Shown: in pieces, positions 1 through 52,666 of the stretch
Position numbering within the stretch: the first letter of the stretch is position 1
Layout of the letters: each line of letters begins with the position of its first letter
Virus record (IMG/VR): IMGVR_UViG_3300028591_000143
Span: 33,589-97,588 of that record
Strand: one strand, 5' to 3'
Source of the DNA: a virus
Lineage: Duplodnaviria > Caudoviricetes
Length of the DNA: 64,000 nucleotides
Translations under genes and position numbers: made by a program
The notes under the pieces: generated by a model
Database searches by the model: none
Seen by the model: the letters and a program-made list of their open reading frames with translations, nothing else
What the model was told of the DNA's origin: nothing

Positions 1-78
1 AGGAACATTAATTGGGATAACATTCATCTTTTTTTCTTCATTATCCACACTCAAATAATCATTATTAATTTCTTTCAT
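1..78 (-). CDS. N-terminus (runs off window) of a third paralogue of the SF2 helicase-like family
   Basis: Hand translation MKEINNDYLSVDNEEKKMNVIPINVP matches 50576 (…DSKMNIIHIDVP); preceded by the same ~175-bp element as 50576. Confidence 0.7.
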   Translation of the reverse strand, partial: MKEINNDYLSVDNEEKKMNVIPINVP

Positions 79-256
79 ATTTAATAATTTTAACAATTAA
101 TCCCACTGAAGGACGCCAGGTAAAGGGCGCCTTCAGTTCATTTATTAGGATTATACGTCATTATAAGTGTGAAATAACTATTTTAAACTCTATTTTTTCT
201 AGCCCACTATAATAAGTACCTTTGTTATAGAAAATGGTTACTTTTCTAATCTCCCC

Positions 257-432
257 AAAAATCAATAGGGGTCTCATTCTAAGATTCTTTCTTTCCTCCT
301 CCGTTAAGAAAAATCCGTTAAGAACCGAGGGACAGCCGAGGTTTAGGATTTTTTAGGAGGAGATAGAAAGTGAGTGAGAGAAGGGGTTCAATTCGTTAGA
401 ATTGTGGCCACGGGAAGGCCTTCTCTCACCTT
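257..432 (-). repeat. Structured ~175-bp element, copy 1 (upstream of helicase paralogue)
   Basis: Near-identical reverse complement of 50154-50361; internal stems GTGAGAGAAGG/CCTTCTCTCAC and TCCTCC/GGAGGA. Confidence 0.9.
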
Positions 433-466
433 ATCTTTACCCGCCCCTTTTCCACTTCTTTTTTTT

Positions 467-515
467 TAGATTCCAGGGTCCACATTAAAGGGTAGATTCT
501 AAGATCGCCCTGGAA
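467..515 (-). ncRNA. Putative tRNA-like three-way-junction element (type B)
   Basis: P1 UUCCAGGG/CCCUGGAA, small hairpin, UACCC-UUUAAU-GUGG, then U-CUA; covaries with 45957-46005. Confidence 0.55.
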
Positions 516-525
516 TTAATTTATT

Positions 526-1095
526 TTATTGATTTCTTTTATAACAGTCACAAATTCTATCCTCGCTTGTTCCCCAATTTGTATTAGTTCTGAGGTAATT
601 TGTTCTGTCATATTCATAGTCTTCCGGATACACACCTGATACCCAAGACTCATATTTTTCTGTAGTATCGCCTCTACCACAAACGCACCCACAATCATCG
701 TCATATTCTTGGGCGAAAAGGTGGGCGTATTGGAATTTAAGGCGTAGAATAAGAGTGGAGAGTAGATCAGCCCAAGAGAACACAAATCTATCCTGGTCAT
801 AATTTTCACTCTCTACCTCAACGCCTATTTCTTCCGCCCAATCCCTCGCCCGTTCAGTACATATCATAGTAGAGCCTTCATCAGCTACTTCATAGATTTT
901 CTGAATCTTAGCTTTTATATTATCTTCGGTGTTTAACATTAATTCTCTGTTTATATATTTTAGGGCTTGTGTATAATAAGGATAAAGCACCTCTCTATTC
1001 TTTGTATGATCAAGCTGTGTTAGTCCGAGAATTTTAAGAAGATAAGTTATAGATTCTTGATATTCGAAGTAGCATTGTTCAAGATCCCACGTCAT
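526..1095 (-). CDS. Hypothetical protein, Cys-rich C-terminus
   Basis: 189-aa ORF, co-oriented at end of tail region. Confidence 0.75.
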   Translation of the reverse strand: MTWDLEQCYFEYQESITYLLKILGLTQLDHTKNREVLYPYYTQALKYINRELMLNTEDNIKAKIQKIYEVADEGSTMICTERARDWAEEIGVEVESENYDQDRFVFSWADLLSTLILRLKFQYAHLFAQEYDDDCGCVCGRGDTTEKYESWVSGVYPEDYEYDRTNYLRTNTNWGTSEDRICDCYKRNQ

Positions 1096-1104
1096 TTCAT
1101 TTTA

Positions 1105-1542
1105 TTATTTTATTTTAATTCGATCAGCATAAGTACTCCAATTTTCTGTAGATTTATAAGTATTTACTGATTCGGAAGGTACATAAATAGGAGAATTATT
1201 TGTATTATTAAATGCTTCGTCACCTAAAGTCGGTGGGGTGGTATTTGATATAGTAATCGAAGTTAATCCAGTACAACCCCGAAATGCCTGTTTTCCAATA
1301 CTAGTAACAGAATTAGGTATATTAATTGAAGTTAAACCCCTACAATCAATGAATGCACCCTCTCCAATACTAGTAATTTCTCTATCGAATTTAATAATAC
1401 CTTTTCCATTTTCATAAGTATTAGAAATTATAATAGCATCACCATAAGATCCATCTGTAGGAGTTATTATTTCTTCATCAATACTATTATACCAAATTTC
1501 ATCATCTGGAGGGGTAATATTTTCTATAGGGGGTAATAACAC
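1105..1542 (-). CDS. BspA-like leucine-rich repeat protein
   Basis: ITSIGEGAFIDCRGLTSINIPNSVTSIGKQAFRGCTGLTSITI plus IYVPSESVNTYKSTENWSTY cap. Confidence 0.85.
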   Translation of the reverse strand: MLLPPIENITPPDDEIWYNSIDEEIITPTDGSYGDAIIISNTYENGKGIIKFDREITSIGEGAFIDCRGLTSINIPNSVTSIGKQAFRGCTGLTSITISNTTPPTLGDEAFNNTNNSPIYVPSESVNTYKSTENWSTYADRIKIK

Positions 1543-1612
1543 TTCTTACCCTTAATATCCACTCCCTTTCATTATCATTTAATCCTAAGTTCTTGTAGTT
1601 TATTGTCATATT

Positions 1613-1915
1613 CTAGTCTCCTATTTGTTCTTCTGTATTATCTCCTTCATCATGAGAAACTGGAACAATAGCCTCTCTGATCTCATAATATGGTTCAGGC
1701 ATTCTACTGTATAAATCATCTATAGTTCCTTGATAGTTATTTATCTGTTCTTGTGCAACTCCTATATAATGAAGATTACGAAGAACAAGTTTATAATTAT
1801 TACAAGTACAAACCTCTCCTTCTGCAAGATCTTTACCACAAAATGCACACTTTCTTATTCCATCGAGCTCAAGGACACACTCTTCTAATGTTCTTACTTT
1901 AGCCATATATTTCAA
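1613..1915 (-). CDS. Small Zn-finger hypothetical protein
   Basis: CAFCG…CTC; 100 aa. Confidence 0.65.
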   Translation of the reverse strand: MKYMAKVRTLEECVLELDGIRKCAFCGKDLAEGEVCTCNNYKLVLRNLHYIGVAQEQINNYQGTIDDLYSRMPEPYYEIREAIVPVSHDEGDNTEEQIGD

Positions 1916-1925
1916 TTTTTAATAG

Positions 1926-12818: not shown

Positions 12819-13217
12819 TTATAATTCTTTACTTATCGTCTTATCCCAGTCTATATCCCCTCCATTCATAAATTCACTCATCTTGTGGTTTTCTATTTCA
12901 AGAGAGGAAATAAGTCTGGTAAAAAATCTCCTCGAAGACTTTGATTTTAATAATTTTCTCATTTCAGGATAACACTCAAAATGTATACCAAAATGAGGAT
13001 GTAATTTAAGGGGCACATCTATTAAACCTGCACTCCTCTCATACCTCCCTCCATATACCATTATTATCTTCTGCCCTTCACATTCACTTACTACTATGGT
13101 GTCTTTATGTTTGTTCTTGTAAAAAAGTATTATCCTAGAATCTCCTCCATAACCATACTTCTCTTCTATACTTTTTCTTCTGTTATTTCCCATAGTTTTC
13201 TCCAATCTAAATAACAC
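12819..13217 (-). CDS. Hypothetical protein, tandem paralogue 3 (true start probably MGNN)
   Basis: Similar to 13166 and 13610 (YG.G.D.R.I..Y..KHK; GIHFECY; RRFFTRLI). Confidence 0.75.
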   Translation of the reverse strand: MLFRLEKTMGNNRRKSIEEKYGYGGDSRIILFYKNKHKDTIVVSECEGQKIIMVYGGRYERSAGLIDVPLKLHPHFGIHFECYPEMRKLLKSKSSRRFFTRLISSLEIENHKMSEFMNGGDIDWDKTISKEL

Positions 13218-13570
13218 CCTCTGATCATATAATCACCTATCCGATGACCAAAGACAACTAATTCTCGGATGATTCTTATAAATTCCCTCCTTGCACATTT
13301 TCCCTTTAGCTGATCTAACATGTCATGGTAGTCTTCAAAGTATACAGTTAATCCACCGAAGGGAGTTTTATCTGGAGTAATTATAGCTCTTCCATAAGTA
13401 AATTTCTTTGGCCCCGTATGAACCTGAATATATAATTTCTCGGAGGTATTGGATTTACTTATTGAGATTCGATTTTTATGTTTATCGTGGTATAAATAGA
13501 TTAAACGCGTGTCGGATCCAAAACCATATTCTTTCTCTGCTTTTTTCGAAAATTTAGTCTTATCTCTCAT
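13166..13570 (-). CDS. Hypothetical protein, tandem paralogue 2
   Basis: Highly similar to 13610..14011 (MRDKTKFSKKAE…). Confidence 0.8.
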   Translation of the reverse strand: MRDKTKFSKKAEKEYGFGSDTRLIYLYHDKHKNRISISKSNTSEKLYIQVHTGPKKFTYGRAIITPDKTPFGGLTVYFEDYHDMLDQLKGKCARREFIRIIRELVVFGHRIGDYMIRGCYLDWRKLWEITEEKV

Positions 13571-13609
13571 ATCATTAATAAGGAAAATAAAGAACTATAA
13601 CATTCTCAG

Positions 13610-14011
13610 TCATAATTCTTTACTCTCTGTTATTTCCCACAGCTCATTCCATAGCAACCTGTCTCCAATCATATGATCCCCTATTCTATGACCGAGAACA
13701 ACTAACTCTCGGATAATTCTTATAAATTTCCTCCTTGCACACTTCCCCTTTAACCGATTTAGCATATCTTCATAATCCTCAAAGTATATGGCTAGTCTAC
13801 CAAAGGGAGTTTTTGTTGGGGGATCTATTAGTCCAACAGAATAGTTATGCGGCTTGGAAAATACTTTTATATATATCTTTTCTGAGTCATTGGATTTACT
13901 TATTGAGATTCGATTTCCATGCTTGTCTCTGTATAAATAGATCAAGTGCGTATCAAATCCTGTACAATATTCTTCCTCTGCTTTTTTCGAAAACTTAGTC
14001 TTATCTCTCAT
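13610..14011 (-). CDS. Hypothetical protein, tandem paralogue 1
   Basis: Highly similar to 13166..13570. Confidence 0.8.
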   Translation of the reverse strand: MRDKTKFSKKAEEEYCTGFDTHLIYLYRDKHGNRISISKSNDSEKIYIKVFSKPHNYSVGLIDPPTKTPFGRLAIYFEDYEDMLNRLKGKCARRKFIRIIRELVVLGHRIGDHMIGDRLLWNELWEITESKEL

Positions 14012-14015
14012 ATCA

Positions 14016-14264
14016 TTAATAAGGATCTGACTTTGTTGAATATCGTATAAATCCCGTCCGTAGTGCTTCTTCTTTTGTCATAGTAAATACAATCTTAGTA
14101 TCCATTTTCTTATATTTTCCGGACGACATTAATACACCCTCACGGATTTTATAGGTTGTTTTGTTTCTCGTTTGTTTTCCTTGGGGGTATCGTAGTTTGA
14201 ATCCTATATACCCCCTGTCGGACTTTATTTTTATTCTTTTCTGTATTTTGCGTTTATTGTTCAA
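14016..14264 (-). CDS. Small basic hypothetical protein
   Basis: 82-aa ORF overlapping the helicase stop. Confidence 0.45.
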   Translation of the reverse strand: MNNKRKIQKRIKIKSDRGYIGFKLRYPQGKQTRNKTTYKIREGVLMSSGKYKKMDTKIVFTMTKEEALRTGFIRYSTKSDPY

Positions 14265-16354
14265 GGTTCAGTTAGGTCTTTTATTGTTTCTTCTTTTATC
14301 GAGACTATTAGATATCCTTTGTCTCGTTTTCCTGTCTCTTCGTTTTTTATGTCGACGGTTTTGATTATAAAGTAATCTCCAAGATCCACTGCCTTCGGAG
14401 TTTTTGAATACCCAACAGAATCATATAGATGTTTTAGTTTCTTTTTTATTTCTGTCTTTGTATATTTTTCTCCAACAGTAAAGGTATCTATAATTAATGT
14501 CCCTATATCTATTGATTGATTCCCTATTATTCCCTCATATGCTTTCTTCATGTCTGTTGCATCAAATCTTAAGGCTCTCATTCTATCTGGCCCTAAAACA
14601 ACATAGTAATTATTAAATGATTCAGGTAAATGTGGTAATAATGAGTTAGCAACACTTTCCTCTAGAGAACATAGGTACCGTAATTTATCAGGAAGGTATT
14701 TATAAGAATATAGTTTATCGAGATAAAAATTAATATCATCTACTTCTCCTATTGTTTTTGATAACGAAGAAAATACATTAAACCTATCCTTATAATCCAC
14801 TTGTTGTACATCGAAAGCCCTCATTTCTGATATCATCACCAATTTATTAAAAACTGGTTGTAAATCTGATCCAGCATGTTTATTTACTGCTACAAAATTC
14901 TTTCTATAACTACTTAATTTTGTTAACTCTAAATATGCACTTGCTAAATCATGTTTGGCACTACTATTAGAGGTATTATATGCATCGAGTAGATTATTAG
15001 TAACTCTCTCTTTATTATCTAAATAATCTTTAAACTTTTCAGTCGTAATTACTTTCGTATTGAGTTTATAAAATAATTCTGCTCTGTTTTTCCAAGGATT
15101 CTCATCTAATCTCTGTCTTCCAAGAATCTGTGGTAAGTCTAGAGTAATATCAACTGATAAACAATCCACATTAGCATCAGAAAATATAAAAGACCTGGCA
15201 TTAGTAGAATAAAAGTCTGCTCCAAGGTACACTGTTCTGGTACAAAGGGTAAACATTTTGTGGGGTTCTCCTTCTTTTGGAACAGTACCTATACACCTCT
15301 TTGTCTTATTTACTGACACATCTCCTGCTTTCTTTAGTGCAGTTTTTATTTTTCTCTCATTTTCATCATTTCCTGAACAAAGAATATTAGCTTCATCTAA
15401 TTTGAGACCACACTTTTTAATTATATCACAGAGATTTTTGACAGAATTAATATAAAACACAGCCTCTTTACTATATACTTCCTCAAAACTGCCATCTTCT
15501 TTTTGTCGTGTGAGCTTTTCAAATTTGCCCTCTCTGTAGGTATTAATGATCCTCTCTACTTCTCCAATCATACTTTTCTTTGAAGAAATTAGCTTGGTTT
15601 TTATATAAGGTTTAATAACTCTTCCTGGATTTTCACTAGTCCAATCAAGCTCATAGTAGGGAAGGTCTTTGTATTCATCAAGTTGTTCCAGATATGTGTC
15701 GATCATTGGTGTAGCAGAAAGATAAATTACATTATCTAATCCTTTTAGATTATACATGAATTCATTTTCAGTATCGGGCTTGAAGCGTGAATCACAGAAA
15801 ATACTCTGAAACTCATCAACTATAATTTTATATTTTTTTATTGAATCTCCAAGCGTCTCTTTTATCCTCCGAAAAGAATCATAGGTGACCATAAACTTCG
15901 GAGACCTATGGTATTTGATATAACAAAGTGAGACATGATCTTCTATCTTTTTCTTAAGTTGCTTGGTGTATTCCTCTGCCCTTTTCTTTGTTTTTTCTTC
16001 TTTTTCCTTCTCTGTGTCTCCATCTAATAAACCTTTCTTGGACTTTGAATCCTTTGAAATGTCCTTATCATAATTCTCAAAAGAGTTATATTCATTCCTT
16101 AGGTATAGTAGATTTTCTTGATCTTTATGTTGTTCCTCTTTATTTTCAAGAAGGACTAATCTAGGACTACAAAGAATGACTGGATAACTGTTTGTGAGCC
16201 AATACTCAGTATATCCACATCCGGTAATAGTTTTGTTCATTATGTAGGATTGATTCTCCGGAACTAGGTCCCTCAATCTTTTACCCTCTTCAAGGTTGTC
16301 CCAATCATTGATATACCTAATATCTCTGGGAACTTTAATTACGTATTTCTCCAT
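14261..16354 (-). CDS. SF2 helicase-like protein with C-terminal putative DNA-binding domain
   Basis: TGCGYT (I), VTYDS, IVDEFQ (II), LSATP (III), TRTVYLGADF (V), QILGRQR (VI); C-terminal KTPKAVDLGDYF. Confidence 0.85.
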   Translation of the reverse strand: MEKYVIKVPRDIRYINDWDNLEEGKRLRDLVPENQSYIMNKTITGCGYTEYWLTNSYPVILCSPRLVLLENKEEQHKDQENLLYLRNEYNSFENYDKDISKDSKSKKGLLDGDTEKEKEEKTKKRAEEYTKQLKKKIEDHVSLCYIKYHRSPKFMVTYDSFRRIKETLGDSIKKYKIIVDEFQSIFCDSRFKPDTENEFMYNLKGLDNVIYLSATPMIDTYLEQLDEYKDLPYYELDWTSENPGRVIKPYIKTKLISSKKSMIGEVERIINTYREGKFEKLTRQKEDGSFEEVYSKEAVFYINSVKNLCDIIKKCGLKLDEANILCSGNDENERKIKTALKKAGDVSVNKTKRCIGTVPKEGEPHKMFTLCTRTVYLGADFYSTNARSFIFSDANVDCLSVDITLDLPQILGRQRLDENPWKNRAELFYKLNTKVITTEKFKDYLDNKERVTNNLLDAYNTSNSSAKHDLASAYLELTKLSSYRKNFVAVNKHAGSDLQPVFNKLVMISEMRAFDVQQVDYKDRFNVFSSLSKTIGEVDDINFYLDKLYSYKYLPDKLRYLCSLEESVANSLLPHLPESFNNYYVVLGPDRMRALRFDATDMKKAYEGIIGNQSIDIGTLIIDTFTVGEKYTKTEIKKKLKHLYDSVGYSKTPKAVDLGDYFIIKTVDIKNEETGKRDKGYLIVSIKEETIKDLTEP

Positions 16355-16454
16355 ATATGTAATAGTTTTTAATTATTTTAATTTCTGTTTAATACAGATT
16401 CCAGTTTTAATAAAGGAGCTTCTTATATAGAAACTTCCTTAAATATTTTTATTA

Positions 16455-16471
16455 CATATATAAGGGTTTGA
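16455..16471 (-). promoter_or_regulatory. Phage promoter-like motif CCTTATATATG
   Basis: TCAAACCCTTATATATG about 100 bp upstream of the helicase; recurs in about 12 intergenic sites. Confidence 0.6.
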
Positions 16472-16690
16472 GAAAAAATGAGGGTAAAAAAGTGGTCGAA
16501 GAGGTTTTGTTAGAAGAGAAAATAACTAAAAACCCCTTAAAATACCCCTAAAAGTGCTATTTTAAGTGGTCGCTGCGACAAAAGGGTGTGAAACAAAGGA
16601 GCTATCCTAATATAATACCTATCTATTAAAAATGTCGCAATATTATGTAAGAGTACTTTATTTTAAGTGGTCATAAAAAATTGAGGGTAC
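16455..16690. repeat. Promoter-plus-repeat block similar to 49937-50070
   Basis: CATATATAAGGGTTTGA…AAGTGGTCG…AAAATACCCC…AAGTGGTC…AAAAAATTGAGGGT in both places. Confidence 0.8.
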
Positions 16691-17083: not shown

Positions 17084-17830
17084 TTAGAGGTTATCCCAAC
17101 TTCTTTTGAAATGCTCAAATGCCAAACTAAGTTGGACATCAGATCTATCGGTTCCATCTGCATCTACTCCGTTTTCCAGGTTTTAATAATAAATTTTGTT
17201 TATTACTTAGACTATATCTTTTTCTTCTGTACATAGTCGTTGAGCCCATAAAAGGGTTGCTGATTAAGTTTTTCCTTTTCCAGCAGTTCTCAGATTTCTT
17301 AATATTTTTTTTATATTAAGGACAAATTATTTATCGAGCGGAGCGTCCATAATCACGCAGTTATAGAAGTGGATAGTACGGACATCTAGACGAGAGGAGT
17401 TAGTGAGATAGAGTTCGCAATCCGTAACCAAGTCATCTTTACGGAAGCTATATTTAGTATCTCTATCAGCAATTTTTTGTTTCCAGTCATCCACGAAATA
17501 GGAGATAGCCTGATCTTCTCTATCCACGAAGCTGAGGGTGAGCTGACCGGAAGTATTCTGACCTGTTTGTTGTCTAATCACGAAATTTCCTCTCATTCTT
17601 TTTTCGAAGCCAGACACAGAACTATCTATACCGACCTGAACGCTATTAAGTCTTGCGTTTATAATAGTGTCGCCGGGGTAATAAACAATTCTAGGGCCGT
17701 TATTCAGGAACTTAAATTCCCACATATCACCCCTTAGAAACTCTTTATTATCGTCTCTATAGGTGGATGTGTAGTCAATAAAGTGCATACGTCCATTACT
17801 TTGACGGACTAATTCTGTTACTGTTGCCAT
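17084..17830 (-). CDS. Tail tube protein, two exons (17333..17830 and 17084..17176), 196 aa spliced
   Basis: Tube-like QLTLSFVD…FYNCVIMDAPLD is continued in frame by ENGVDADGTDRSDVQLSLAFEHFKRSWDNL* after intron removal. Confidence 0.8.
17177..17332 (-). ncRNA. Miniature group I intron (156 nt)
   Basis: Exon ends in U with P1 U•G wobble; P (AACUGCUG), Q (AAUCAGCA), R (UCAACGACUA), S (AAGAUAUAGUCU); terminal G. Confidence 0.9.
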
Positions 17831-31416: not shown

Positions 31417-31935
31417 TTAGTAACTATATCCTTCTCGTTGGGTCATATTTTGTCTCCAATCTGCTCTTTCTCTACGTAAAGCTTGACGTTGTGCATAACC
31501 GAGTCGTTTATTGTAGAAATTAACATCTTGCTTCTTTTCTCTATATTTTTTGAGTCCTTTACCTAAACCTATAGTAGTTCCAATAACGACTCCAGCTATT
31601 CCAGTATGTTTAATTCCTCTGAGTAGGGATCTTGTGAGGGCTGGATTAGCAACTCCAGATTTAACTGTAGATGTTATGGCTTTTCTGTTTCCAACTCCCT
31701 TTAATATCCCTCCAGTAACGGCTCCAGCACCAGCACCTATAACAGCTCCCTGAGCAGCAGAAGTTAAAGGACCACTAATTCCAGGACCACGCTTCTTTTC
31801 CTCAGCTAATATATCAGAATCTTTAGCTCTTTTTAGGTTATCTGTATCATCCCATCGTGTGAATTCTCTTTGGGCATACTCATAACCATCATAAAAAGCT
31901 TGATTTATTAGCTCTTCATATATTTTATCATTCAT
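31417..31935 (-). CDS. Long-leader glycine-zipper protein (paralogue of 47244)
   Basis: …AFYDGYEYAQREF|TRWDDTDNLKRAKDSDILAEEKK; GAVIGAGAGAVTGG. Confidence 0.8.
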   Translation of the reverse strand: MNDKIYEELINQAFYDGYEYAQREFTRWDDTDNLKRAKDSDILAEEKKRGPGISGPLTSAAQGAVIGAGAGAVTGGILKGVGNRKAITSTVKSGVANPALTRSLLRGIKHTGIAGVVIGTTIGLGKGLKKYREKKQDVNFYNKRLGYAQRQALRRERADWRQNMTQREGYSY

Positions 31936-31947
31936 GTTTTACTAGTT

Positions 31948-33120
31948 TTATTGTTGCACTGGTTGATTTTGGGACTTTTCGTAGGCAAATGCTTTCTTAT
32001 CTACAGCTTCGAGGGGTTTTCTTACAGCTTTATCTCCCCACTCAAATGGTTTCCATTTAGCAGAGGCCAAACCAATTCCAGCCAAAATTCCGACAGGACC
32101 TGTTTTTCGTACAAACTTAGCGGCTTTATTCATCCAAACACCACGTCCTGGTTTTGTCATTTGATCAGCTAATTTCCCTCTACTTGTTTTTCCCATATAA
32201 AATCCCCAGTTTTCATACCAGGGAGTTTTTTCAGCGGGAGTTGCATACTGTCTTTCCTCAGACTGTGATTGTTTTATCTGATCTTTAAGCTGTTGTCTTT
32301 GGGATAGATAACCAACAGCAGGGAAAGCAGCGCCTAATCCAACAGCCAAAGCAGCTTTTCCAGGAGATCCAGCGGCATCCTTAAATGCTTCCTTACCCAT
32401 AGTCTTAGCTTTACCCCAGGCAGAATTCATAGTAGCTCTGTTAAGTTTTCCTTTTCTAGCTAACATAAGAGTTCCTGCGGTAGCTCCTAATGTTCCAGCA
32501 CCTATCAAAACTCCATTCTTTATCTTCTTGCCTAAACTTTTCTTTTCTTTCTCCGGGGTATCTACTGGCGCTCCAAGTTTCTTACGGTCAGCCTGTATTA
32601 TTTTATCTGTCAAATACCCAGTTCCAGCCATAATAGCACCAGAGGCCATCATATTAGCCATTTTCTGACCTGATCCACGTTCTTTTCCAATATCTACGAG
32701 ATCACGTCCAAAGTCTCTGGCATTATTTACGGTCTTGGATTTCTTTAACTGGGCTACAACATTATCCATCGTCTTACTTTTAGCGACTTTTCTAATACCT
32801 TTAGCGACGGGAGAGAAAACAGAATAGGTTTTTGTTTTTCTTTTTAGTGTTATTGAATAGGTGGTTTGTTGTGGTTGCATTGGGGTAGGAGTAGTAATAT
32901 TTACTGGATTTCCACTTTTAAGAGCTTTCTCTACGTTTCTATTATTAGCAGCAATTTGACGGCTAATATCTCTACTTGCTTGATCTGCCAGCATTTGTTG
33001 TTGCTTAAACTGTTTTGGCATATCAATTGCTCCTTTTACCATAGATACATTAGAGGCTGTAGCTAGTGCTTTCCCTGCAAAACCAAGTATTGAAAATACT
33101 TTCTCTCTAAACTGTATCAT
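31948..33120 (-). CDS. Leader-bearing multi-segment Gly/Ala-rich basic protein
   Basis: MIQFREKVF|S; internal ITLKRKTKTY|S and ERQY|A. Confidence 0.75.
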   Translation of the reverse strand: MIQFREKVFSILGFAGKALATASNVSMVKGAIDMPKQFKQQQMLADQASRDISRQIAANNRNVEKALKSGNPVNITTPTPMQPQQTTYSITLKRKTKTYSVFSPVAKGIRKVAKSKTMDNVVAQLKKSKTVNNARDFGRDLVDIGKERGSGQKMANMMASGAIMAGTGYLTDKIIQADRKKLGAPVDTPEKEKKSLGKKIKNGVLIGAGTLGATAGTLMLARKGKLNRATMNSAWGKAKTMGKEAFKDAAGSPGKAALAVGLGAAFPAVGYLSQRQQLKDQIKQSQSEERQYATPAEKTPWYENWGFYMGKTSRGKLADQMTKPGRGVWMNKAAKFVRKTGPVGILAGIGLASAKWKPFEWGDKAVRKPLEAVDKKAFAYEKSQNQPVQQ

Positions 33121-33122
33121 AT

Positions 33123-33431
33123 CTAAACACTCCTATCTTGTAAACTTTGGCCTGCGTTCTTAAGTCCTCTACCTATACCTCCAGTGATATTCTTACCGGC
33201 GACATAACCAGCACCAAGTCCTACGGCACCAGCCAGAAGTCCACCGCCTAGTCCATATTTAATAGCACTCCCAAGAACTTTCGCCCCAGCTAATCCTCCT
33301 GCAAATCTTCCTATATTAGAGTCTAGAACACTACCTGTCCCCTTCATAACTCCTCCGGCGGTATTTCCAAGAACATTACCAGCTGCCTCAAGAGCACCAA
33401 ATGTTTTTCTTTTTAATCTGTATCTTGCCAT
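33123..33431 (-). CDS. Leader-bearing glycine-zipper protein
   Basis: MARYRLKRKTF|G; GLGGGLLAGAVGLGAG. Confidence 0.75.
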   Translation of the reverse strand: MARYRLKRKTFGALEAAGNVLGNTAGGVMKGTGSVLDSNIGRFAGGLAGAKVLGSAIKYGLGGGLLAGAVGLGAGYVAGKNITGGIGRGLKNAGQSLQDRSV

Positions 33432-33622
33432 TTTCCTAATCTCCCATCGTTTAATTCTGTTCTTAGTTTTCTCATCTCTTTATTTAAATCAGTTCCAGCC
33501 ATTTGTCTTTGGGTATCTAATCTTCCTAGTCTATCAAAATCCTGATCATATTTTCTCCCACGCCTAAATCCTGAAACTCCTGTAGTATTAAGAGTCTTTG
33601 AAAACTTACGTAATATAATCAT
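33413..33622 (-). CDS. Small leader-bearing protein
   Basis: MIILRKF|S; overlaps both neighbours. Confidence 0.65.
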   Translation of the reverse strand: MIILRKFSKTLNTTGVSGFRRGRKYDQDFDRLGRLDTQRQMAGTDLNKEMRKLRTELNDGRLGKWQDTD

Positions 33623-34185
33623 AATTCTAAGAGATATATTTGATATTTTAATCCAAATGGTAGGATATTTATAGCTCTAATGGCATCTTGTATACTACTA
33701 AATTCAAGAACTAAGGAACGACTAGCTTTATCATATTTTAAAGCCTCTCCTAGTAATTCTCTTACAGGAATGGATAGATCAAATGGAAGGTCACTATTAA
33801 AAGATGCTCCATTATTATTACCATCATTTTTCTTTTTCTTGCTATTAGGACTAAACAATCTTTCTTCTTCAGAGAATAGCTTGTTTTTGAAACTAATCTT
33901 GATATTTAGTAGTCGTTTATCGTATACATGTTCGGGGAGTCTAACCTCGTCTGGCATTTTAGCTTTCGCTCCCACCTTAATATACATTCTATATTTATCT
34001 CTATGTCCAAATGCGGTAGAGATAACAAATCTTTCTATTACAACACTATTACCCTTTAGTATAGGTAATAATTGTGACGAGTTTATGATTTTAAATTTAT
34101 TCCGATCAGAGTATTTCATAAGCTCGACATAAAGACTTCTCATAGCATCGTACTCAGAGAATAGTTTTTGTCTAAATTCTATCAT
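33619..34185 (-). CDS. Leader-bearing protein
   Basis: MIEFRQKLF|S; internal NKLF|SEEERLF|S. Confidence 0.75.
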   Translation of the reverse strand: MIEFRQKLFSEYDAMRSLYVELMKYSDRNKFKIINSSQLLPILKGNSVVIERFVISTAFGHRDKYRMYIKVGAKAKMPDEVRLPEHVYDKRLLNIKISFKNKLFSEEERLFSPNSKKKKNDGNNNGASFNSDLPFDLSIPVRELLGEALKYDKASRSLVLEFSSIQDAIRAINILPFGLKYQIYLLEL

Positions 34186-37727: not shown

Positions 37728-39953
37728 TTATTTTCCAATCTCCTGACCTAACCAAGAGACTAGTGTATCATTAGTGTTATTTATCGATTCTTCAACTTCA
37801 TTGGCACTAAACTGAGCCTCCTGAAGTTCTGCCTGTTCGTCTTCAGCCGGAGTATTCTTAGCCTCTATAATAGCATTTACAGAGGTATTCGTAGCATCAC
37901 TAATTGCCTGTACCGCAGCAAGGGCGGCATCTTCAATGGCCTCTACACTAGGAGCAGCCTCTTCTCCCTGCTGGAGGGGAACAAGGTTTCCATTTTCATC
38001 ATAGACGGCCGGGACAACCTCTGGCTCTGGGGCGGCAGCGGCATTAACCTCAGCGAAGAACTTATCTAAGGGATTAGCAGAGAACTTCTTCTCTTCATCT
38101 TCATCCCCTCCGATCAAATCAGCAGCAGTTTCCTCACTGATAGGAGCTAAGTCAATATCATCTTCGGACACAACGGCTTTAGTATATTCTCCGTTCTCTT
38201 TATCCTTGATGACAGCGGTTTCATTGTCGATGGGAGTAATAGTCTCACCCTCAGTCTCAACAACCTCACCTTCCTCAACGGCCTTCTCAATATCAGCCTC
38301 ATCAGCCTCCTCAGAGAATAAACGACACATATAGTCAGTCATATCCTCATTCTCACTGAAGAATTTAGTCTCCTCAGCATTTGAATAAGTCTTCTCTTCA
38401 GTCAGATCAGCAGCTTCTTCTTCGCTTATCGGTTTAAGGTCAATATCATCATCAGTCATTGTGGCCTTAGTATATTCACCGTTCTCTTTATCTTCAATAA
38501 CAGCAGTCTCATCATCAACCGGAGTAATAATTTCAGAATCAGTTTCAACTTGCTCATTATTTTCAATGGCTTTCTCAATATCAGCTTCATCGGCTTCCTC
38601 AGAGAAAAGTCTGCACATATAATCAGTCATATCCTCATTCTCACTGAAGAATTTAGTCTCTTCAGCATTTGAATAAGTCTTCTCTCCGGTTAATTCATCA
38701 GCCTCTTCCTCACTGATAGGATTGCAGTTCATACTATCACCATCAATAACAACCTTAGTTAATTCACCATTATCTTTATCCTCGACAATAGCAGTATAAT
38801 CGTCGACGGGAGTTATAATTTCAGTGTCAGTCTCAACCTCATCACCACCCTCGATAGCATTCTCAATGGCGGACTGAGATGCGTCGATATCATTACAAGC
38901 CTCACTAAAGAGACGAGTCATAAAAGCGGTGTTATCAATATTATATCTAGTTACAAAGACATCATGCTCAGAGAATTCGACCTGTTCGGGCTCTTCAATC
39001 TCCTCAGTGTCTTCAACTCCAACACTTTCGAGGAGAGAAATAGCATAATCTCTAGCTTCGGTTTCATCTTCAAAAACCTGAACACCATCAATACCAATCT
39101 CCTGAAGTCTATCCACAAGTTCTTGAGCACTTTCTTCGCTATACTCAGAAGCATCGACTATCTGGTGATTAAACGCATCTATTCCAACAACATGAAGGGG
39201 CATAAATTCCTCTTCATTAGCGGTCTCTTCACCTTCCTCGCTAAAATTCTTTGAGTCTAATTCCTGAACATCCATTTCTTCATCATCCATTGTAACCTTG
39301 GCTTGATCACCACTATTCTCGTCAGTCACAATAACAGTATTGGGTTCTTCTGTTTTCTCGATTTTTAAGTCTCCAACCTTTGCAGTTTCTTGACTTTCAA
39401 TGACTTCAGAAAATAGACGCTCACAATAAGCCTGATCACTGAATATTCTCAGAACCACAGTATTATCGGTAGAAACACTGAATTCTTTCTCTTCCTCATC
39501 CTCTTCAGATCCGCACTCACAAGGATTTTGTCCACACTCTGGGCAAACATCACCCTCTGCGTTCTCTTCAACAGTAGGAGCAGGAGTTTCATCAGGATTA
39601 TGATCTTCAACTTTCTCATCAGGAGCTCCAACTTGATCACCAGGAGTCACTCCATCATCTTCCATGTGCAGATAATTCTCCGGTTGGTCTGTAGGGATTT
39701 CGACACCCGCAGGATACAGATCATAATTACCATCTTCAGCTTTCTCAGCAATAGTCCGCTCACCGTTTTCATTATCGGTGATTTCAACCTTGCCTTCACC
39801 TAAGTCAACATAAGTTAACTCATCCGTGGTAACTGAACCTTTTTGTTTTGCTTCTTCAATATCTCTAGCAACCTGTGAAGTTAATTCCTCATCACCTTCA
39901 GCAGTAGCACTAAAGATTCTAGTCATAAATCTTGTATTTTCTGGATTTTTCAT
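37728..39953 (-). CDS. Acidic scaffold/prohead core protein with 96-aa repeats
   Basis: Very Glu/Asp-rich; immediately upstream of MCP; at least 12 [KR]x[FY]S motifs. Confidence 0.75.
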   Translation of the reverse strand: MKNPENTRFMTRIFSATAEGDEELTSQVARDIEEAKQKGSVTTDELTYVDLGEGKVEITDNENGERTIAEKAEDGNYDLYPAGVEIPTDQPENYLHMEDDGVTPGDQVGAPDEKVEDHNPDETPAPTVEENAEGDVCPECGQNPCECGSEEDEEEKEFSVSTDNTVVLRIFSDQAYCERLFSEVIESQETAKVGDLKIEKTEEPNTVIVTDENSGDQAKVTMDDEEMDVQELDSKNFSEEGEETANEEEFMPLHVVGIDAFNHQIVDASEYSEESAQELVDRLQEIGIDGVQVFEDETEARDYAISLLESVGVEDTEEIEEPEQVEFSEHDVFVTRYNIDNTAFMTRLFSEACNDIDASQSAIENAIEGGDEVETDTEIITPVDDYTAIVEDKDNGELTKVVIDGDSMNCNPISEEEADELTGEKTYSNAEETKFFSENEDMTDYMCRLFSEEADEADIEKAIENNEQVETDSEIITPVDDETAVIEDKENGEYTKATMTDDDIDLKPISEEEAADLTEEKTYSNAEETKFFSENEDMTDYMCRLFSEEADEADIEKAVEEGEVVETEGETITPIDNETAVIKDKENGEYTKAVVSEDDIDLAPISEETAADLIGGDEDEEKKFSANPLDKFFAEVNAAAAPEPEVVPAVYDENGNLVPLQQGEEAAPSVEAIEDAALAAVQAISDATNTSVNAIIEAKNTPAEDEQAELQEAQFSANEVEESINNTNDTLVSWLGQEIGK
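38110..38920 (-). repeat. ~288-bp tandem repeat (about 3 units) in scaffold gene
   Basis: ATCCTCATTCTCACTGAAGAATTTAGTC at 38343 and 38631. Confidence 0.9.
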
Positions 39954-42109: not shown

Positions 42110-43714
42110 TTATTTATTATCTTCCACAACATACAATGCATCATAGTCGATCAGCATGTGTGGGTCAATTCCTTCTATAATTGTTTTTGTGAGAAAATTT
42201 GAGATATTAGAATACTCATTAAATATGTATGGAATTTCTACTAAGTAGATTAAGTTATTCTTACAATAATCCCTTAATTCAATATCTCTCTGTAGTTGGG
42301 CCTTAAAGTCATCCTTTGTTTTATGAAATACACTAACATATTTATAGTGCTGAACACCATTATATTCAATAATAATGTTCTTAGTAGTATTGGAAATATC
42401 TTTTAAGTAAAAATCAACTCTTATTTTACCACCACTCCTTCCAAATGTATTATCCAACCAAATCTCTCTTTCAAACTGAATACCTTGTTCCTTAAGAAAG
42501 GTATAAACCATCCTCTCTCCAGAGGACATCGACCTATTTGGATTCCCGGCCCCACATAAATGGCTATCAGGGGTTTGAAAGAAAAACTCGTCAAAAATCG
42601 GATCATATATTTCTATAGGGGTTTTTGCATTTACATAATTGACTCTGTAATATAAGTATGTTCCTTCCCCATGCACTTCATTTGCGCGGTGAACAAACTC
42701 TTCTGTGGTTAATTTAATACTTCCTCCACATCTAGGACAACCAACTCCACTAAGATGATGGCCAGCTCGTTGAAGAAATTCTCCATGAATTGGGCAAATT
42801 ATTATCACATCTTTCATACGATTAATATAATTTACCTTACTATAATCATATTTATCTCCATGGATCTCTCTTGCACGTTCAATAAACTGTTCAGTTGTTA
42901 ATCTAACTTTTCCAGCACAAAGTAAACAACCGTGTCCAGATAAGTGTTGAGATGGTGTTTGAAGAAATTCTCCATGAATTGGGCAGATTATTTTCACATG
43001 AGTATTTGCATTAATATAATTTACCTTACTATAATCATATTTATCTCCATGGATCTCTCTTGCACGTTCAATAAACTGTTCAGTTGTTAATCTAATATTA
43101 TTAGCACACAATGGACAACCACTTCCGGATAGATGTTGAGATGGTGTTTGAAGAAATTCTCCATGGATAGGACAGATTATTATGATTTTAGTATTATTAT
43201 TGACATAATTTACTTTACTATAATCATACTGATCTCCATGAATTTTTCTAGCCTCAACAATAAATTGCTCCGTCGTATGTGTTCTATGCTTACTATATAA
43301 CTCCTGACCACATTTCTGACATCTTCCTCTAGTTAAAAAATTAGAAGGATTTATCTCAAAGTCACCATGTCCTTCCACTAAGCAAGTTATGATTACTTTT
43401 TCATGAGCATTTTTATACTCAGTCTTGCTATAATCAAACCTATCACCAAACTTCCTCAAACCTCTCCTTATAAACTCTTTCGTCTTCTCATCTTTCTCAC
43501 TGTATTTCTCGTTTATAATTTGATTTATTTCTTCCTCACTTAAATTTTCTTTATACTCTTCACACTTACATTCTTCACAACAACAATTTTCTTCATGTGT
43601 AGCTTTTAATAATCTTTCTGTCAACAAACTCATAATTTTATTCTTTTTATATTTATTCTTAAACTCATTTTTAAAAAGGGAAGGATGTTTTTTAAGTTGC
43701 GCAATATTATACAC
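42110..43714 (-). CDS. Free-standing homing-endonuclease-like protein (63-aa Zn repeats + Vsr/DUF559-like nuclease); true start probably MSLLTER
   Basis: TTEQFI..AR.IHGD.YDYSKVNY…ICPIHGEF.Q….HL.G.GC repeats; SSGE…RVDFYL…IIEYNGVQHY. Confidence 0.85.
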   Translation of the reverse strand: MYNIAQLKKHPSLFKNEFKNKYKKNKIMSLLTERLLKATHEENCCCEECKCEEYKENLSEEEINQIINEKYSEKDEKTKEFIRRGLRKFGDRFDYSKTEYKNAHEKVIITCLVEGHGDFEINPSNFLTRGRCQKCGQELYSKHRTHTTEQFIVEARKIHGDQYDYSKVNYVNNNTKIIIICPIHGEFLQTPSQHLSGSGCPLCANNIRLTTEQFIERAREIHGDKYDYSKVNYINANTHVKIICPIHGEFLQTPSQHLSGHGCLLCAGKVRLTTEQFIERAREIHGDKYDYSKVNYINRMKDVIIICPIHGEFLQRAGHHLSGVGCPRCGGSIKLTTEEFVHRANEVHGEGTYLYYRVNYVNAKTPIEIYDPIFDEFFFQTPDSHLCGAGNPNRSMSSGERMVYTFLKEQGIQFEREIWLDNTFGRSGGKIRVDFYLKDISNTTKNIIIEYNGVQHYKYVSVFHKTKDDFKAQLQRDIELRDYCKNNLIYLVEIPYIFNEYSNISNFLTKTIIEGIDPHMLIDYDALYVVEDNK

Positions 43715-47696: not shown

Positions 47697-47808
47697 GATT
47701 TTAATGGGTTATACGTATTATTCTCGGAGTCTAATTCTTGTTTTGAATTTTCTACCCCTTCAGTAAATGTTTTTTCTTTAATATTTTCTTCGTCGTACAT
47801 AATAAAAG

Positions 47809-48132
47809 CTATTTCGGCATAGCTACAGGATCTACACCTTTTGATCTAGTTTTATATAATCCAACGTTTTTAGGAGTGTCTTCAAGGTTCTGCATTTTTT
47901 GGGTCTGAATTCTTGTTTTATCTTCATGCATATCCTTTTGCATCTCCATTTTCTGTAGTTGTTGGATTTGTTTCATTCTAGCCTTTGCCGCATCTGCCTC
48001 TATTTTTTGTTTTGTTCGTTGGTTAATCATGATCTGTCTTTGCATTCTCATATTTTCCAACTGTATATCTCTAGGGGTTAATTGCTGCGGTTCTTCTACG
48101 GCTGCAAATCTTTTCTGTCGTATTATTTTCAT
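47809..48132 (-). CDS. Leader-bearing coiled-coil protein
   Basis: MKIIRQKRF|A; Gln/Met-rich. Confidence 0.7.
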   Translation of the reverse strand: MKIIRQKRFAAVEEPQQLTPRDIQLENMRMQRQIMINQRTKQKIEADAAKARMKQIQQLQKMEMQKDMHEDKTRIQTQKMQNLEDTPKNVGLYKTRSKGVDPVAMPK

Positions 48133-49847: not shown

Positions 49848-49936
49848 AATTTAATTCCATATAATTTTTAAGGACTCACACAAATTTAATAGAGAGTCCG
49901 GTTAAAATAAAATGTAAAGAACAGCAATTTTCTCTA

Positions 49937-49953
49937 CATATATAAGGGTTTGA
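49937..49953 (-). promoter_or_regulatory. Phage promoter-like motif upstream of virion operon
   Basis: TCAAACCCTTATATATG, identical to 16455-16471. Confidence 0.6.
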
Positions 49954-50153
49954 TAAAAAAGTGGGTAAAATAAGTGGTCGGAAGCGTTTTGTTAATTAAA
50001 AAAATCCCTAAAAATCACTAAAAATACCCCCAAAAAACCAAAAATAAGTGGTCGTAAAAAATTGAGGGTCTGGAATGGGAGTGGAATGGGAATTTAAACT
50101 TGCTCTAAAATAAAGTTTAGCGAAGCGATCTAAACTTGAATATAGAGCGAATG

Positions 50154-50361
50154 AAGGGTGAGAGAAGGCCTTCCCGGGGCCACAATCCTATTTCGCTCAG
50201 TCTGACGACTTTCGCTACATTAACGGATTGAACCCCTTCTCTCACTCACTTTCTATCTCCTCCTAAAAAATCCTAAACCTCGAGTGTCTCTCGGTTTTTA
50301 ACGGATTTTTCTTAACGGAGGAGGAAAGAAAGAATTTTAGAATGAGACCCCTATTGATTTT
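50154..50361 (+). repeat. Structured element, copy 2 (upstream of helicase)
   Basis: Inverted copy of 257-432 with a ~30-nt insertion. Confidence 0.9.
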
Positions 50362-50575
50362 ATGGAAAAAGGGAAAGGGTACTTACATATATAGTGACGT
50401 AAGTTTTTTAGATTGAAATTGGGAAAATGCAGTTATAATGACATAAAAACCTAATAAATGAAAAGTTAAAGTTATCCATTCCAGACCACTCCAAAATAGG
50501 TCTGGAATGGGGATAAAATAGGAAAGAATAATATAACGTAGATTTGTAATAATCTGCAAAATAAAATAAATTGAT

Positions 50576-52666
50576 ATGACAGAATATGATGATTTTAATG
50601 AAATGGATAGTAAAATGAATATTATCCATATTGATGTTCCGGAGGGTATTGAGTATATAAGTGAATGGAAAGAATATACATTACCTCCAGAACATTCTAT
50701 TTTAGATAAAACTATTTGTGGTTGTGGTTTTACCGAATATTGTCTTAATAATAATATTCCAACTATTTTATGTTCTCCCAGAAAGAAATTATTAGAGAAT
50801 AAAGAAGAACAACATAATAGTGAAGAAGGTAGAAAAAGAGGGTTAAGTTGGGTGTATTATTTTAGAAATGACTATGAGAATAACATAGAATTTGATGGTA
50901 GTAAAGAAATAAACACTCCCTTCGGTAGATCTTCATCCAACTTTCTTTCAGAAATTCAAACACAAGAGAATTTAGATGAGATAGAGAAAGATAAGAGGGT
51001 GATGTATATAAGTAAGATAAAGAATGAGTTAAGAGAATATGTTTGGAATTGTAAAGAAAATAATACTCCCTTTAAAATTATTGTAACTTATGACTCCCTT
51101 TATCATGTCCTTAGTGTATTATCTAACTATTACTCCTCTGATGAATTTTATTGTATTGTAGACGAATTCCAATCAATTTTCATGGATGCCTCATTCAAAG
51201 CTACCGTTGAATTAGATTTTGTAGAGGATTTAAAGTTATGTAAAAATGTTCTTTACCTATCAGCTACGCCAATGTTAGAGAAGTATCTCATTCAATTAGA
51301 GGAATTTAAAAATCTACCTATGTATAAGCTTATTTGGCCTGAAAATAGAATAGAAAAGGTTAGAACAGAACTTAGGGTAGTGAGAAGTATAAATAATGAA
51401 ATAAAAGAATTGGTGGAAGATTATAGAAATGGTAAAGGAAAAGAAAAAGTATTACCCACCGGAGAAATCAAATACTCCAGAGAACTTGTTATCTTTGTCA
51501 ATTCTATCAAATCCATCTGTGATATAATAAAGAAATGCAACCTAACTCCTGATGAAACTAATATTATTTGTGCTGATTCTGGAAAAAATATAAAAGCCCT
51601 AAAAAAAGTTAAACATCAAGTTGGTAATATTCCTACTTATGGTCAATATCACAAAATGTTTACTTTATGTACAAGAACAACATACTTGGGTGCTGATTTT
51701 TACTCTACTAATGCTTTTACTGTAGTCTGTTCGGACTGCAATATCCAAACTATGACTGTTGATATCTCTTTAGATTTACCACAAATTTTAGGTAGACAGA
51801 GATTAAAAGAGAATGTGTTTAGGAATGAAGCTCTACTATTATACAAAGCAGAGACAAAAAAGATGGCTATAATAAATGAAGATAGACTGGTAAATGATGA
51901 AAAAGTAAAAGAAAAAGAAGAGAAAACACTAGAAATGCTGAAAGGATATGAAACGATGACAGATATCCAAAAGGAATTATGTGCAGAAAAGTGGGCTAGG
52001 GATGATAAATTATATGAGAAAGATTATATAGGTGTTTCTAAGCGTACAGGAAAAGCAACATTTAATTTCCTAGTTAAAATAGCTGATCAAAGAGCTTATG
52101 ATGTTTCCCGGAGAGAATATATAGATGAGATAACAATTAAAAGAGGAATTGAGAGTATAGGTAGTGCAAACGTAGTAGTAAATGAAAAAGATAATATTAC
52201 AGAAGCCATTAAATATTTTAGAGAGGAGTTTAATAGAGATAATAATTTTGTTAGGAGAATGAAGATGTTATGTGATTGTTATTTTGCCGATTCTAATTTC
52301 TTTACTGACTATGACAAAATCTTACAAACTATTATTCCTAGAGAATACTACAATTATATTAATCTTCTTGGTTTTGAGAGAATTAGAGCATTAAAGTACC
52401 AAGAATTAGATATACAAAGAGAAATAGTAAATATTGATTTCCTCAAAAAAACCTCTCTTCCATCTCTCTTTATTGTTGGTTCAAGGTATTCTAAGAAACA
52501 AATAAAAGAAATGTTAAGAAAATATTATGAAGAGAATAATATAACCAAAACTCCGAAGGCTACTGATCTTGGAGAATATTTTAATCTTAAACCTATTAAA
52601 TTAAAATTAGACGATGAATGGGAACATGGCTTTGAAATAATAAGTTTAAAGGAGGAAAGTGTATGA
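50576..52666 (+). CDS. SF2 helicase-like protein (paralogue of 14261..16354)
   Basis: CGCGFT, VTYDS, IVDEFQ, LSATP, TRTTYLGADF, QILGRQR; C-terminal KTPKATDLGEYF. Confidence 0.85.
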   Translation: MTEYDDFNEMDSKMNIIHIDVPEGIEYISEWKEYTLPPEHSILDKTICGCGFTEYCLNNNIPTILCSPRKKLLENKEEQHNSEEGRKRGLSWVYYFRNDYENNIEFDGSKEINTPFGRSSSNFLSEIQTQENLDEIEKDKRVMYISKIKNELREYVWNCKENNTPFKIIVTYDSLYHVLSVLSNYYSSDEFYCIVDEFQSIFMDASFKATVELDFVEDLKLCKNVLYLSATPMLEKYLIQLEEFKNLPMYKLIWPENRIEKVRTELRVVRSINNEIKELVEDYRNGKGKEKVLPTGEIKYSRELVIFVNSIKSICDIIKKCNLTPDETNIICADSGKNIKALKKVKHQVGNIPTYGQYHKMFTLCTRTTYLGADFYSTNAFTVVCSDCNIQTMTVDISLDLPQILGRQRLKENVFRNEALLLYKAETKKMAIINEDRLVNDEKVKEKEEKTLEMLKGYETMTDIQKELCAEKWARDDKLYEKDYIGVSKRTGKATFNFLVKIADQRAYDVSRREYIDEITIKRGIESIGSANVVVNEKDNITEAIKYFREEFNRDNNFVRRMKMLCDCYFADSNFFTDYDKILQTIIPREYYNYINLLGFERIRALKYQELDIQREIVNIDFLKKTSLPSLFIVGSRYSKKQIKEMLRKYYEENNITKTPKATDLGEYFNLKPIKLKLDDEWEHGFEIISLKEESV

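Follow-up and report, generated by a model that had tools for sequence, protein, structure and literature searches.

The DNA analysed here, called the window below, comprises the right-hand 64 kb (positions 33589-97588; 33% G+C) of one 97,588-bp virus contig, IMG/VR record IMGVR_UViG_3300028591_000143. It encodes three paralogous proteins with the fold of superfamily 2 (SF2) helicases, named A1, B and A2 in this text, and a non-coding, hairpin-forming element of ~190 nt lies upstream of A1 and A2. Related contigs are of rumen and gut metagenome origin. The record is rated 26% complete by CheckV, and the A2 protein recurs in identical form on a 178-kb contig, so the phage is larger than the 97,588-bp contig. 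An identity as a crAss-like phage, to which the size of 97.6 kb pointed, was considered and dropped, given this low completeness and the presence of tail tube and tape measure genes. The window also contains eight tRNA genes. Scores in bits for the element refer to a covariance model that was built from eight element copies and searched against the whole contig and 361 kb of fetched loci. The principal features are as follows.

1..78 (-), 5' end of A1; the gene occupies genome positions 31549-33666(-), leaves the window on the left and encodes about 703-706 amino acids (aa)
79..525 (-), upstream non-coding region of A1, 447 nt
243..430 (-), element copy 1, 189 bits; 179 nt upstream of the A1 start codon
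14261..16354 (-), B, 697 aa; 36% identical to A2, without the two-hairpin element
50157..50376 (+), element copy 2, with the same fold and a 32-nt insertion in the inner-hairpin loop, 179 bits; 215 nt upstream of the A2 start codon
50576..52666 (+), A2, 696 aa; SF2 core, lysine-less P-loop, DEFQ, SAT and QIxGRQR motifs, helical linker and C-terminal winged helix
52663..53691 (+), partner gene, 342 aa; its start overlaps the A2 stop codon

Three dispersed SF2-helicase paralogues had been proposed at these positions in the initial annotation of the window. A tblastn search of the 97,588-bp contig with the products of 14261-16354(-) and 50576-52666(+) recovered exactly three full-length copies, which the AlphaFold fold described below assigns to SF2. 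Among them is the open reading frame (ORF) that runs off position 1, A1, which is 67% identical to A2 over 700 aa. A2 is nearer to genes of other phages (83-84% identity to loci L001 and L003) than to A1, and two genes of this type (type A) stand 46-51 kb apart, facing outwards, in three phages, namely this genome, G002 (IMG/VR 3300001487_000052) and Ga0247611_10000295. Because the two element-bearing copies are this old, and because their spacing and orientation are kept in three phages, recent selfish spread, one of three explanations offered at the outset, is not supported for them. Only B, which has no element, occupies a slot that varies between relatives. As first noticed, B splits the tail module, with a tail-tube gene (phrog_45, E 2.7e-8) on one side and a tape-measure gene (phrog_9570, E 4e-16) on the other; its orthologue L031 (69% identical) has a different location in G002, whose tube protein is 84% identical and whose tube-to-tape-measure slot holds unrelated genes.

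The two element copies have the same orientation relative to their genes, and the measured distances of 179 and 215 nt agree with the 180-215 bp estimated initially; the boundaries then proposed (257-432 and 50154-50361) were right to within about 15 nt. Together the copies form an inverted pair, with arms 243-398/50221-50376 being 92% complementary over 156 nt and arms 397-430/50157-50190 94% complementary, and blastn aligns one with the other at 95.7% identity over 141 nt. Gene conversion between them was rejected as an explanation, since the same allele is found in L005, L166, L167 and L169; the 95% identity of the copies thus reflects strong conservation. Minimum-energy folds obtained independently for 11 copies share one two-domain architecture, in keeping with the two long imperfect hairpins that were first described. 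Domain 1 consists of a 10-13-bp stem (P1) around the invariant CCTTCCC, which forms a loop or small hairpin, and a second hairpin, CAATTC-TAAC-GAATTG, whose loop tolerates insertions of 32-50 nt. Domain 2 is a long hairpin with a two-segment outer stem, an invariant AAAAATCC/GGATTTTT stem and internal loops that hold two TAACG motifs (TAACGGA in copy 1). The longer motif TAACGRA does occur three times in each copy, as annotated; the window total is 12 (13.4 expected by chance), and 6/12 fall within the two elements.

Covariation was assessed on an alignment of eight element copies onto which the structure was mapped from single-sequence folds. RNAalifold on a MAFFT alignment, tried for the same purpose, was abandoned because misaligned insertions caused domain 2 to be mis-paired. 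In the eight-sequence alignment 96.1% of cells pair, and both-sided changes are seen at 14 of the 48 pairs, compared with 5.1 +/- 1.6 in shuffles and 2-4 with partners slid. Whole stems are exchanged between lineages with pairing kept (for example, GAGAGAAGG:CCTTCTCTC becoming GGGAAAAGCAAG:CTTGCTTTTCCC), and compensatory changes of three kinds are seen in the inner hairpin. The fold of the element is under selection. The copy at L001:2076-2271 was left out of the alignment: its stem-1 5' arm and stem-2 3' arm are of one paralogue type and the intervening arms of another, so that both stems are broken, and it is probably either a chimeric assembly or a recombinant of one phage's two paralogous loci.

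To count how often gene and element occur together, only type-A genes preceded by 380 nt or more of available DNA were considered (n=13: A1, A2, L001, L002, L003, L005, L006, L007, L166, L167, L169, L170 and L172). The element is present in the same place in 13/13, so the co-occurrence extends well past the window. The covariance model detected no copy besides the two in this genome and none away from a type-A gene in the 361 kb of fetched loci. A 31-nt exact element pattern had no match in IMG/VR, and a looser one hit 81 loci there, of which 3 are true copies (already known) and the others chance matches. Upstream of B the covariance model was negative, and B and L031 share only a promoter and CGACCACTT boxes.

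The arrangement nevertheless has counterparts across the family. Across 80 IMG/VR loci, the ORF-free stretch upstream of the gene has a median length of 649 nt, and paralogues within one genome share an upstream module of their own, as in L019, L022 and L028 (81-87% over 250-390 nt) and similarly within L056/L068/L074 and L008/L009/L011. The core inference of a gene plus cis-element unit therefore holds, and the principle extends to distant family members. The only homologue found in a cultured phage, a single copy in Psychrobacter phage D'Alembert (OV696620, L175, 83729-86994), lies at the inner edge of a 5.7-kb terminal repeat, after 1.35 kb of repeat-rich non-coding DNA; its P-loop reads GVGGTT, and an HNH gene overlaps its stop codon. 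In the present contig, the regions upstream of the three paralogues are also the three largest ORF-free gaps (429, 972 and 728 nt), with part of the 972-nt gap probably belonging to a split tail-tube gene. The tail-tube ORF in the 17084-17330 region encodes 167 aa and spans only positions 134-223 of the 350-position PHROG profile, and a short open frame at 17084-17182 resembles its continuation.

The AlphaFold model of the protein (mean predicted local distance difference test score, pLDDT, 77) contains two tandem RecA-like domains at residues 16-520. Structure alignment of this model gave 377 chains at Z >=8, including Prp2 (Z 12.5, root-mean-square deviation (rmsd) 4.5, 305 residues aligned), DinG (Z 11.9) and eIF4A (Z 11.7). 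A Foldseek comparison with origin-binding SF2 helicases had been suggested as a check; it does return UL9 of herpes simplex virus 1 (HSV-1) as the first match (E 1e-7, template-modelling (TM) score 0.33), yet Brr2, DbpA and Hjm follow close behind. Scans of the paralogues against Pfam (E <=0.01), PHROGs and NCBIfam matched no family, and phmmer against PDB sequences found nothing at E <=1. Across 20 aligned sequences there is no variation in motifs II (DEFQ), III (SATP) and VI (LPQIxGRQR). In motif I, DKTICGCG[F/Y]TEY, the position of the Walker-A lysine is taken by F, Y, A, M or C, a loss that the initial annotation did not mention. The canonical G.GK[ST] occurs in 0/269 family sequences; the motif was located by a strict pattern in 138 of them and by a looser one in most others. 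As the Walker-A lysine is absent, the word helicase names a fold here and implies no activity.

When the C-terminal ~160 residues were modelled alone (pLDDT 88.6), a helical bundle followed by a winged helix was obtained. The last ~70 residues make up the winged helix, whose best matches, weak but consistent, are the DNA-binding domain of RFX (Z 5.7, rmsd 2.6 over 66 residues), RFX5, the NrS-1 primase-helicase in its C-terminal region, and the origin-binding domain of phage P4 (Z 4.2, rmsd 2.5 over 61 residues). The family itself is large: 5,237 of the 8,000 candidates scored from a 90%-clustered collection are family matches, and a profile search returned 2,537 clusters (50% identity) at E <=1e-3 and 743 at E <=1e-30. 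In a language-model atlas the nearest clusters are assigned to viruses, and family copies are dispersed over phage records of 95-400 kb, two to five in each.

The partner gene that follows A2 encodes a protein whose N-terminus matches the Pfam families MUG113 (24.2 bits; cut-off 22.3) and T5orf172 (16.8 bits, under the cut-off of 20) and carries the motifs IYV...KIGYT...NEWF of the GIY-YIG superfamily, while its C-terminal ~175 aa are 60% identical to the A2 tail. The same gene pairing is found in L008, L016 and L039, whose helicases are 35-43% identical to A2, and in the close L169 and L170; orthologous partners score 24.8 bits with T5orf172 in L008 and 28 bits with MUG113 in L016. Each partner tail resembles that of its own neighbour helicase (62% in L008, 49% in L039 and 46% in L016) far more than those across lineages (about 30%), which indicates that both proteins keep a common recognition domain. 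A ~1-kb insertion (intron or intein) first suspected in some homologues was rejected, the extra sequence being the adjacent partner gene with its duplicated tail, and a tail shared between the D'Alembert homologue and its HNH neighbour was sought and rejected as well. Most copies, A1 and B included, have no nuclease partner.

A link to priming comes from relatives of the protein. In six 50% clusters (P0177, P0183, P0241, P0246, P0251 and P0264) the BT4734-like_N domain (PF08800), an archaeo-eukaryotic-primase (AEP)-type domain, is fused C-terminally, at 50-64 bits (cut-off 22.4; E 1e-13 to 2e-17). The fused proteins, of ~940-970 residues, comprise the helicase-like part including the tail and then the primase-type domain, and they are real single ORFs on contigs from separate samples. 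One of the six clusters also has a weak PriCT_1 match, and PriCT domains accompany AEP-type primases in mobile-element initiators (PMC5862659). The BT4734-like_N domain is absent from the present genome fragment.

Further sites, several of them conserved, border the element and the genes.

137..169 (-), promoter-like TATAAT followed by a CCTAATAAATGAA box; 88% match to the A2 copy at 50430..50462 (+)
16445..16572 (-), promoter module of B, with CTCAAACCCTTATATATG and CGACCACTT boxes; homologous to 49927-50054
49927..50054 (-), leftward promoter module of a 572-aa gene and the virion block, with phased A-tracts and two AAGTGGTCG boxes; outside the helicase unit proper
50067..50090 (+), short direct repeats GGTCTGGAATGGG / GAGTGGAATGGG; the motif is also the stem of the hairpin at 50476-50510
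50102..50148 (+), imperfect palindrome of 47 bp, with two inverted (flip/flop) forms among relatives
50386..50396 (-), promoter-like CACTATATATG aimed into the element, differing from the phage promoter motif at two positions
50476..50557 (+), two leader hairpins, CCATTCCAGACC...GGTCTGGAATGG and then TAACG-GTAGAT...ATCTGC right before the ribosome-binding site

Within the TATAAT/CCTAATAAATGAA box, CCTAATA[A/G]ATGA is invariant in 7 aligned loci, and the box at 137..169 agrees at 10/12 positions with a sigma-70-like TTTAAA-16-TATAAT arrangement. At the position of CACTATATATG, a TATA-type motif is found in most aligned relatives. The GGAATGG/GGAGTGG repeats border the element in direct and inverted orientation; they number 1-4 copies in relatives, follow an 11-bp period in L003 and are absent at A1. 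These repeats and the phased A-tracts at 49990-50040 were compared with an iteron-type origin, in which an array of direct repeats adjoins an easily melted region beside the initiator gene; no distinct unwinding element was delimited. The leader hairpins are kept in L001, L003, L005, L166 and L170, with compensatory changes in the second stem (GTATAC/GTATAC, GTAGAC/GTTTAC). The 9-nt loop of the palindrome reads CGAAGCGAT in the A2 locus of the window (wA2), L005, L166 and L169, whereas L001, L003 and L170 have the exact reverse complement of this sequence; the palindrome hairpin as a whole also aligns better when inverted (scores 29-34 vs 19-25). This flip/flop inversion of 50102-50148 is a DNA-level event.

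Some observations on the same regions are recorded here in their own right. Between the two AAGTGGTCG boxes, at 49985-50040, A-tracts (AAAAAAA, AAAAA, AAAAA, AAAAAA, AAAAA) are phased at ~10-12 bp and may form bent DNA. A promoter-like CTCAAAnCCTTATATATG motif, unlike the sigma-70 consensus, occurs eight times, at 16465(-), 49947(-), 55844, 56041, 56378, 61080, 62025 and 62083 (+); such sites lie 50-60 nt upstream of tRNA genes and also before helicase B and the 572-aa gene. A hairpin, ATTCCAGGG...CCCTGGAAT, at 467-515 bounds the A1 upstream region on its outer side, and the sequence at 45947-45986 matches it at 88%.

We propose, with a probability of about 0.45, that the unit is a replication-initiation module, in which a hairpin-forming, origin-like DNA site is coupled to a cis-encoded initiator and a primase or nuclease partner provides priming or nicking. 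The module would have as its first part a 0.45-0.75-kb non-coding region with a cruciform- or hairpin-forming core, invariant CCTTCCC and TAACG loops and GGAATGG-type flanks. Its second part would be the SF2-fold protein that lacks the Walker-A lysine, the fast-evolving C-terminal winged helix of which is predicted from the model to read nucleic acid, and in many copies a third part would be added, the T5orf172 (GIY-YIG-type) nuclease-like protein that bears the same C-terminal domain. The helicase-like protein would bind on or beside the palindromic element that neighbours its own gene, opening it or holding it open. DNA synthesis could then start by priming or nicking, with a primase (fused to the protein in some relatives) as the possible source of the former and the partner nuclease of the latter. 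While the parts and their co-occurrence are real, as are the selection on the fold, the primase fusions and the shared domains, it is from these that we infer protein-element binding, origin activity and any enzymatic activity.

Of the three options offered by the initial annotation (an origin-binding initiator with its origin, a helicase with a partner non-coding RNA, and a selfish module), origin plus initiator is the best supported and has gained most from the analysis, owing to the primase fusions, the winged-helix tail shared with the nuclease, the Watson-Crick character of the palindromes (47 of 48 stem pairs in L166, L169 and L005) and the flip-flop palindrome. Several observations weigh against it. 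The universal loss of the Walker-A lysine, read from the sequences, argues against a working motor. UL9 ranks only marginally above generic SF2 helicases and falls outside the top 50 by VIA-align, PF02399, the family of UL9 and T5 D2, had no match in the Pfam scan, and the structural matches of the winged helix are weak (Z <6). The A1 and A2 winged helices are 63% identical and their elements near-identical, so that a specificity of each tail for its element is not evident; B and distant family members, furthermore, are without the two-hairpin element. An RNA would account equally well for the three-way junction, the loops that tolerate insertions and the promoter-like motif directed into the element. 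A2 is located at a strand switch and at the cumulative GC-skew minimum, which is no independent evidence of an origin because phage GC skew tracks the direction of transcription. Finally, the 97,588-bp contig is a fragment (26% complete), so that copy number and replication genes are unseen.

Ranked after the replication module come, in this order, a structured RNA, a homing cassette and a plain control region. The RNA explanation, a serious rival though less likely than the replication module, holds that the element is either part of a long leader controlling the helicase-like gene or a separate small RNA of ~200-300 nt transcribed divergently from it, and that the SF2-fold protein remodels or binds this RNA, as DbpA does with an rRNA hairpin. 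A multi-helix structure with a three-way junction and bulges, invariant UAAC and CUUCCC loops, accepted insertions of 32-50 nt and 14 covarying pairs would all suit an RNA; in 11/11 copies the opposite-to-gene strand has the better fold, by 7-18 kcal/mol (z -2.76 vs -1.2), and it is on this strand that the promoter-like CACTATATATG is directed into the element. The best structural matches of the protein, too, include DbpA and other RNA helicases. It is nonetheless unusual for an RNA of such size to be nearly devoid of G-U pairs (1-2 of 48), and mismatches, divided into 15 of G-U type and 9 of A-C type, do not clearly favour either strand. Rfam 15 has no match over the element at the gathering score (tRNAs only) nor at E <=10, with the best score 18.6 bits against a cut-off of 35, and a terminator scan at the element yielded nothing convincing, the hairpins being without U-tracts. 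The protein, moreover, has its tail in common with a DNA nuclease, relatives carry it as a primase fusion, and the conserved promoter-like box of the gene lies downstream of the element, which may place the element outside the mRNA.

That the unit is a selfish homing cassette seems to us improbable. Under that explanation the T5orf172 nuclease would cut the cognate locus of co-infecting relatives and repair would copy the cassette in, with the helicase-like gene as carrier or immunity factor and the element as target or mobile DNA. The overlap of the nuclease gene with the helicase stop codon would fit, as would that of a different nuclease gene (HNH) in D'Alembert, the presence of B and its own promoter in an interval that G002 fills with unrelated genes, its B orthologue lying elsewhere, the variation between contigs in the genes bordering type-A copies and the several gene copies per genome. 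The element-bearing copies are, however, old (67% identical) and keep their 46-51 kb spacing and outward orientation in three phages, most copies (A1 and B included) have no nuclease partner, and the pairing of nuclease and tail is ancient and co-evolving rather than sporadic; a 2.1-kb gene kept in about 2,500 clusters is also probably more than cargo. An ordinary control region between genes, with hairpins as terminators or insulators and repeats as operators, conserved for tight early expression of the neighbouring gene, is very unlikely. Although phage-class promoter-like motifs border the element and a long co-directional operon ends ahead of copy 1, no co-directional gene precedes copy 2, U-tracts are missing from the hairpins, the terminator scan was unconvincing, the invariant loops and the conserved fold of 155-plus nt exceed a terminator, and the link is specific to one gene family over many genomes.

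Known initiators offer partial parallels to the proposed replication module. HSV-1 UL9 (oriS/oriL) and T5 D2 have, like the present protein, an SF2 core of two RecA domains followed by a C-terminal DNA-recognition region (PMC12543377; PMC3632103), and the UL9 origin is palindromic and can adopt a hairpin form, as can the element described here. T5 D2 is a UL9-like SF2 protein (PF02399) in a phage, and its K405E variant is inactive (PMC12543377; PMC3632103). Both proteins, in contrast, have a working Walker-A lysine, whereas the present family has GCG[F/Y]T, no match to the PF02399 profile, a small winged-helix C-terminal domain, and multi-copy genes each beside its own element. In the phage ICP1, Odn (Gp88) is a T5orf172 nuclease with a DNA-binding domain taken from a replication initiator, the origin of which it cuts (PMC8263062). 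The T5orf172-type partner described above similarly shares a recognition tail with the adjacent helicase-like protein, the pair being comparable to Odn and the PLE RepA/origin. Odn and RepA, however, come from enemies (phage vs satellite), whereas the two genes here are adjacent in one phage; the shared domain is a C-terminal winged helix rather than RepA_N, and the partner is called nuclease-like from its sequence.

Primase-helicase initiators (P4 alpha, NrS-1 gp28, BT4734/VirE-type AEP) unite a primase, an NTPase and a winged-helix origin-binding domain in one polypeptide (PMC5862659), and the fused relatives resemble them in this respect. In the P4 alpha/NrS-1 gp28 type an SF3 or SF4 helicase follows the primase, whereas here an SF2 core precedes it, most members are without a primase and the P-loop lysine is gone. 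The inverted terminal repeat (ITR) of adeno-associated virus (AAV) is a T-shaped DNA fold, with an outer stem around two small hairpins and flip/flop forms, that is recognised by a helicase plus nuclease (Rep). The likeness of the ITR/Rep pair to the present unit is an analogy only, since the AAV sites are single-stranded linear ends served by an SF3 helicase and an HUH nuclease, and those described here are internal sites of a large double-stranded DNA phage genome. DbpA/YxiN, which acts on 23S rRNA hairpin 92, likewise combines an SF2 core with a small C-terminal domain specific for one structured nucleic-acid partner, yet DbpA keeps all catalytic motifs and has a tail of the RNA recognition motif (RRM) type.

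Hardly anything is known about where large uncultured phages start replication or about the initiators they use, and the family, despite its ~2,500 clusters and the recognisable cis element attached to it, is new to Pfam, PHROGs and NCBIfam. Were the unit an origin and its initiator, it would supply a sequence handle for locating origins in hundreds of phage genomes of 95-400 kb, and an SF2 'helicase' able to work although the canonical P-loop lysine is gone. A nuclease partner that copies the recognition domain of the initiator would carry the Odn principle beyond a single Vibrio phage, to a module widespread among phages. In a bolder version, which we hold to be unlikely, large gut and rumen phages would use several dispersed origins, each a hairpin-forming DNA element with a cis-encoded lysine-less SF2 initiator from a family not described before, and a co-evolving GIY-YIG-type nuclease with the same recognition domain would nick the origin to start synthesis or attack those of competitors; were this true, the initiator would be of a new type and phage-phage conflict would gain a further layer. 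Should the element prove to be an RNA, it would constitute a well-supported new class of structured RNA tied to one protein family.

Other features of the window concern neighbouring genes. Between B and the tape-measure gene, at 12819-14011, lie three tandem paralogous small genes (131-133 aa), neighbours among which are 78% identical in DNA and none of which has a Pfam match. In-frame tandem repeats occur in a 741-aa gene (288 nt x3, 38108-38867) and in a 534-aa gene (189 nt x3, 42666-43232), and are likely to encode repeated surface domains. In the early-gene block, positions 56412-58520 encode a 702-aa protein without a Pfam match that matches phrog_1735 (E 6e-194, function unknown).

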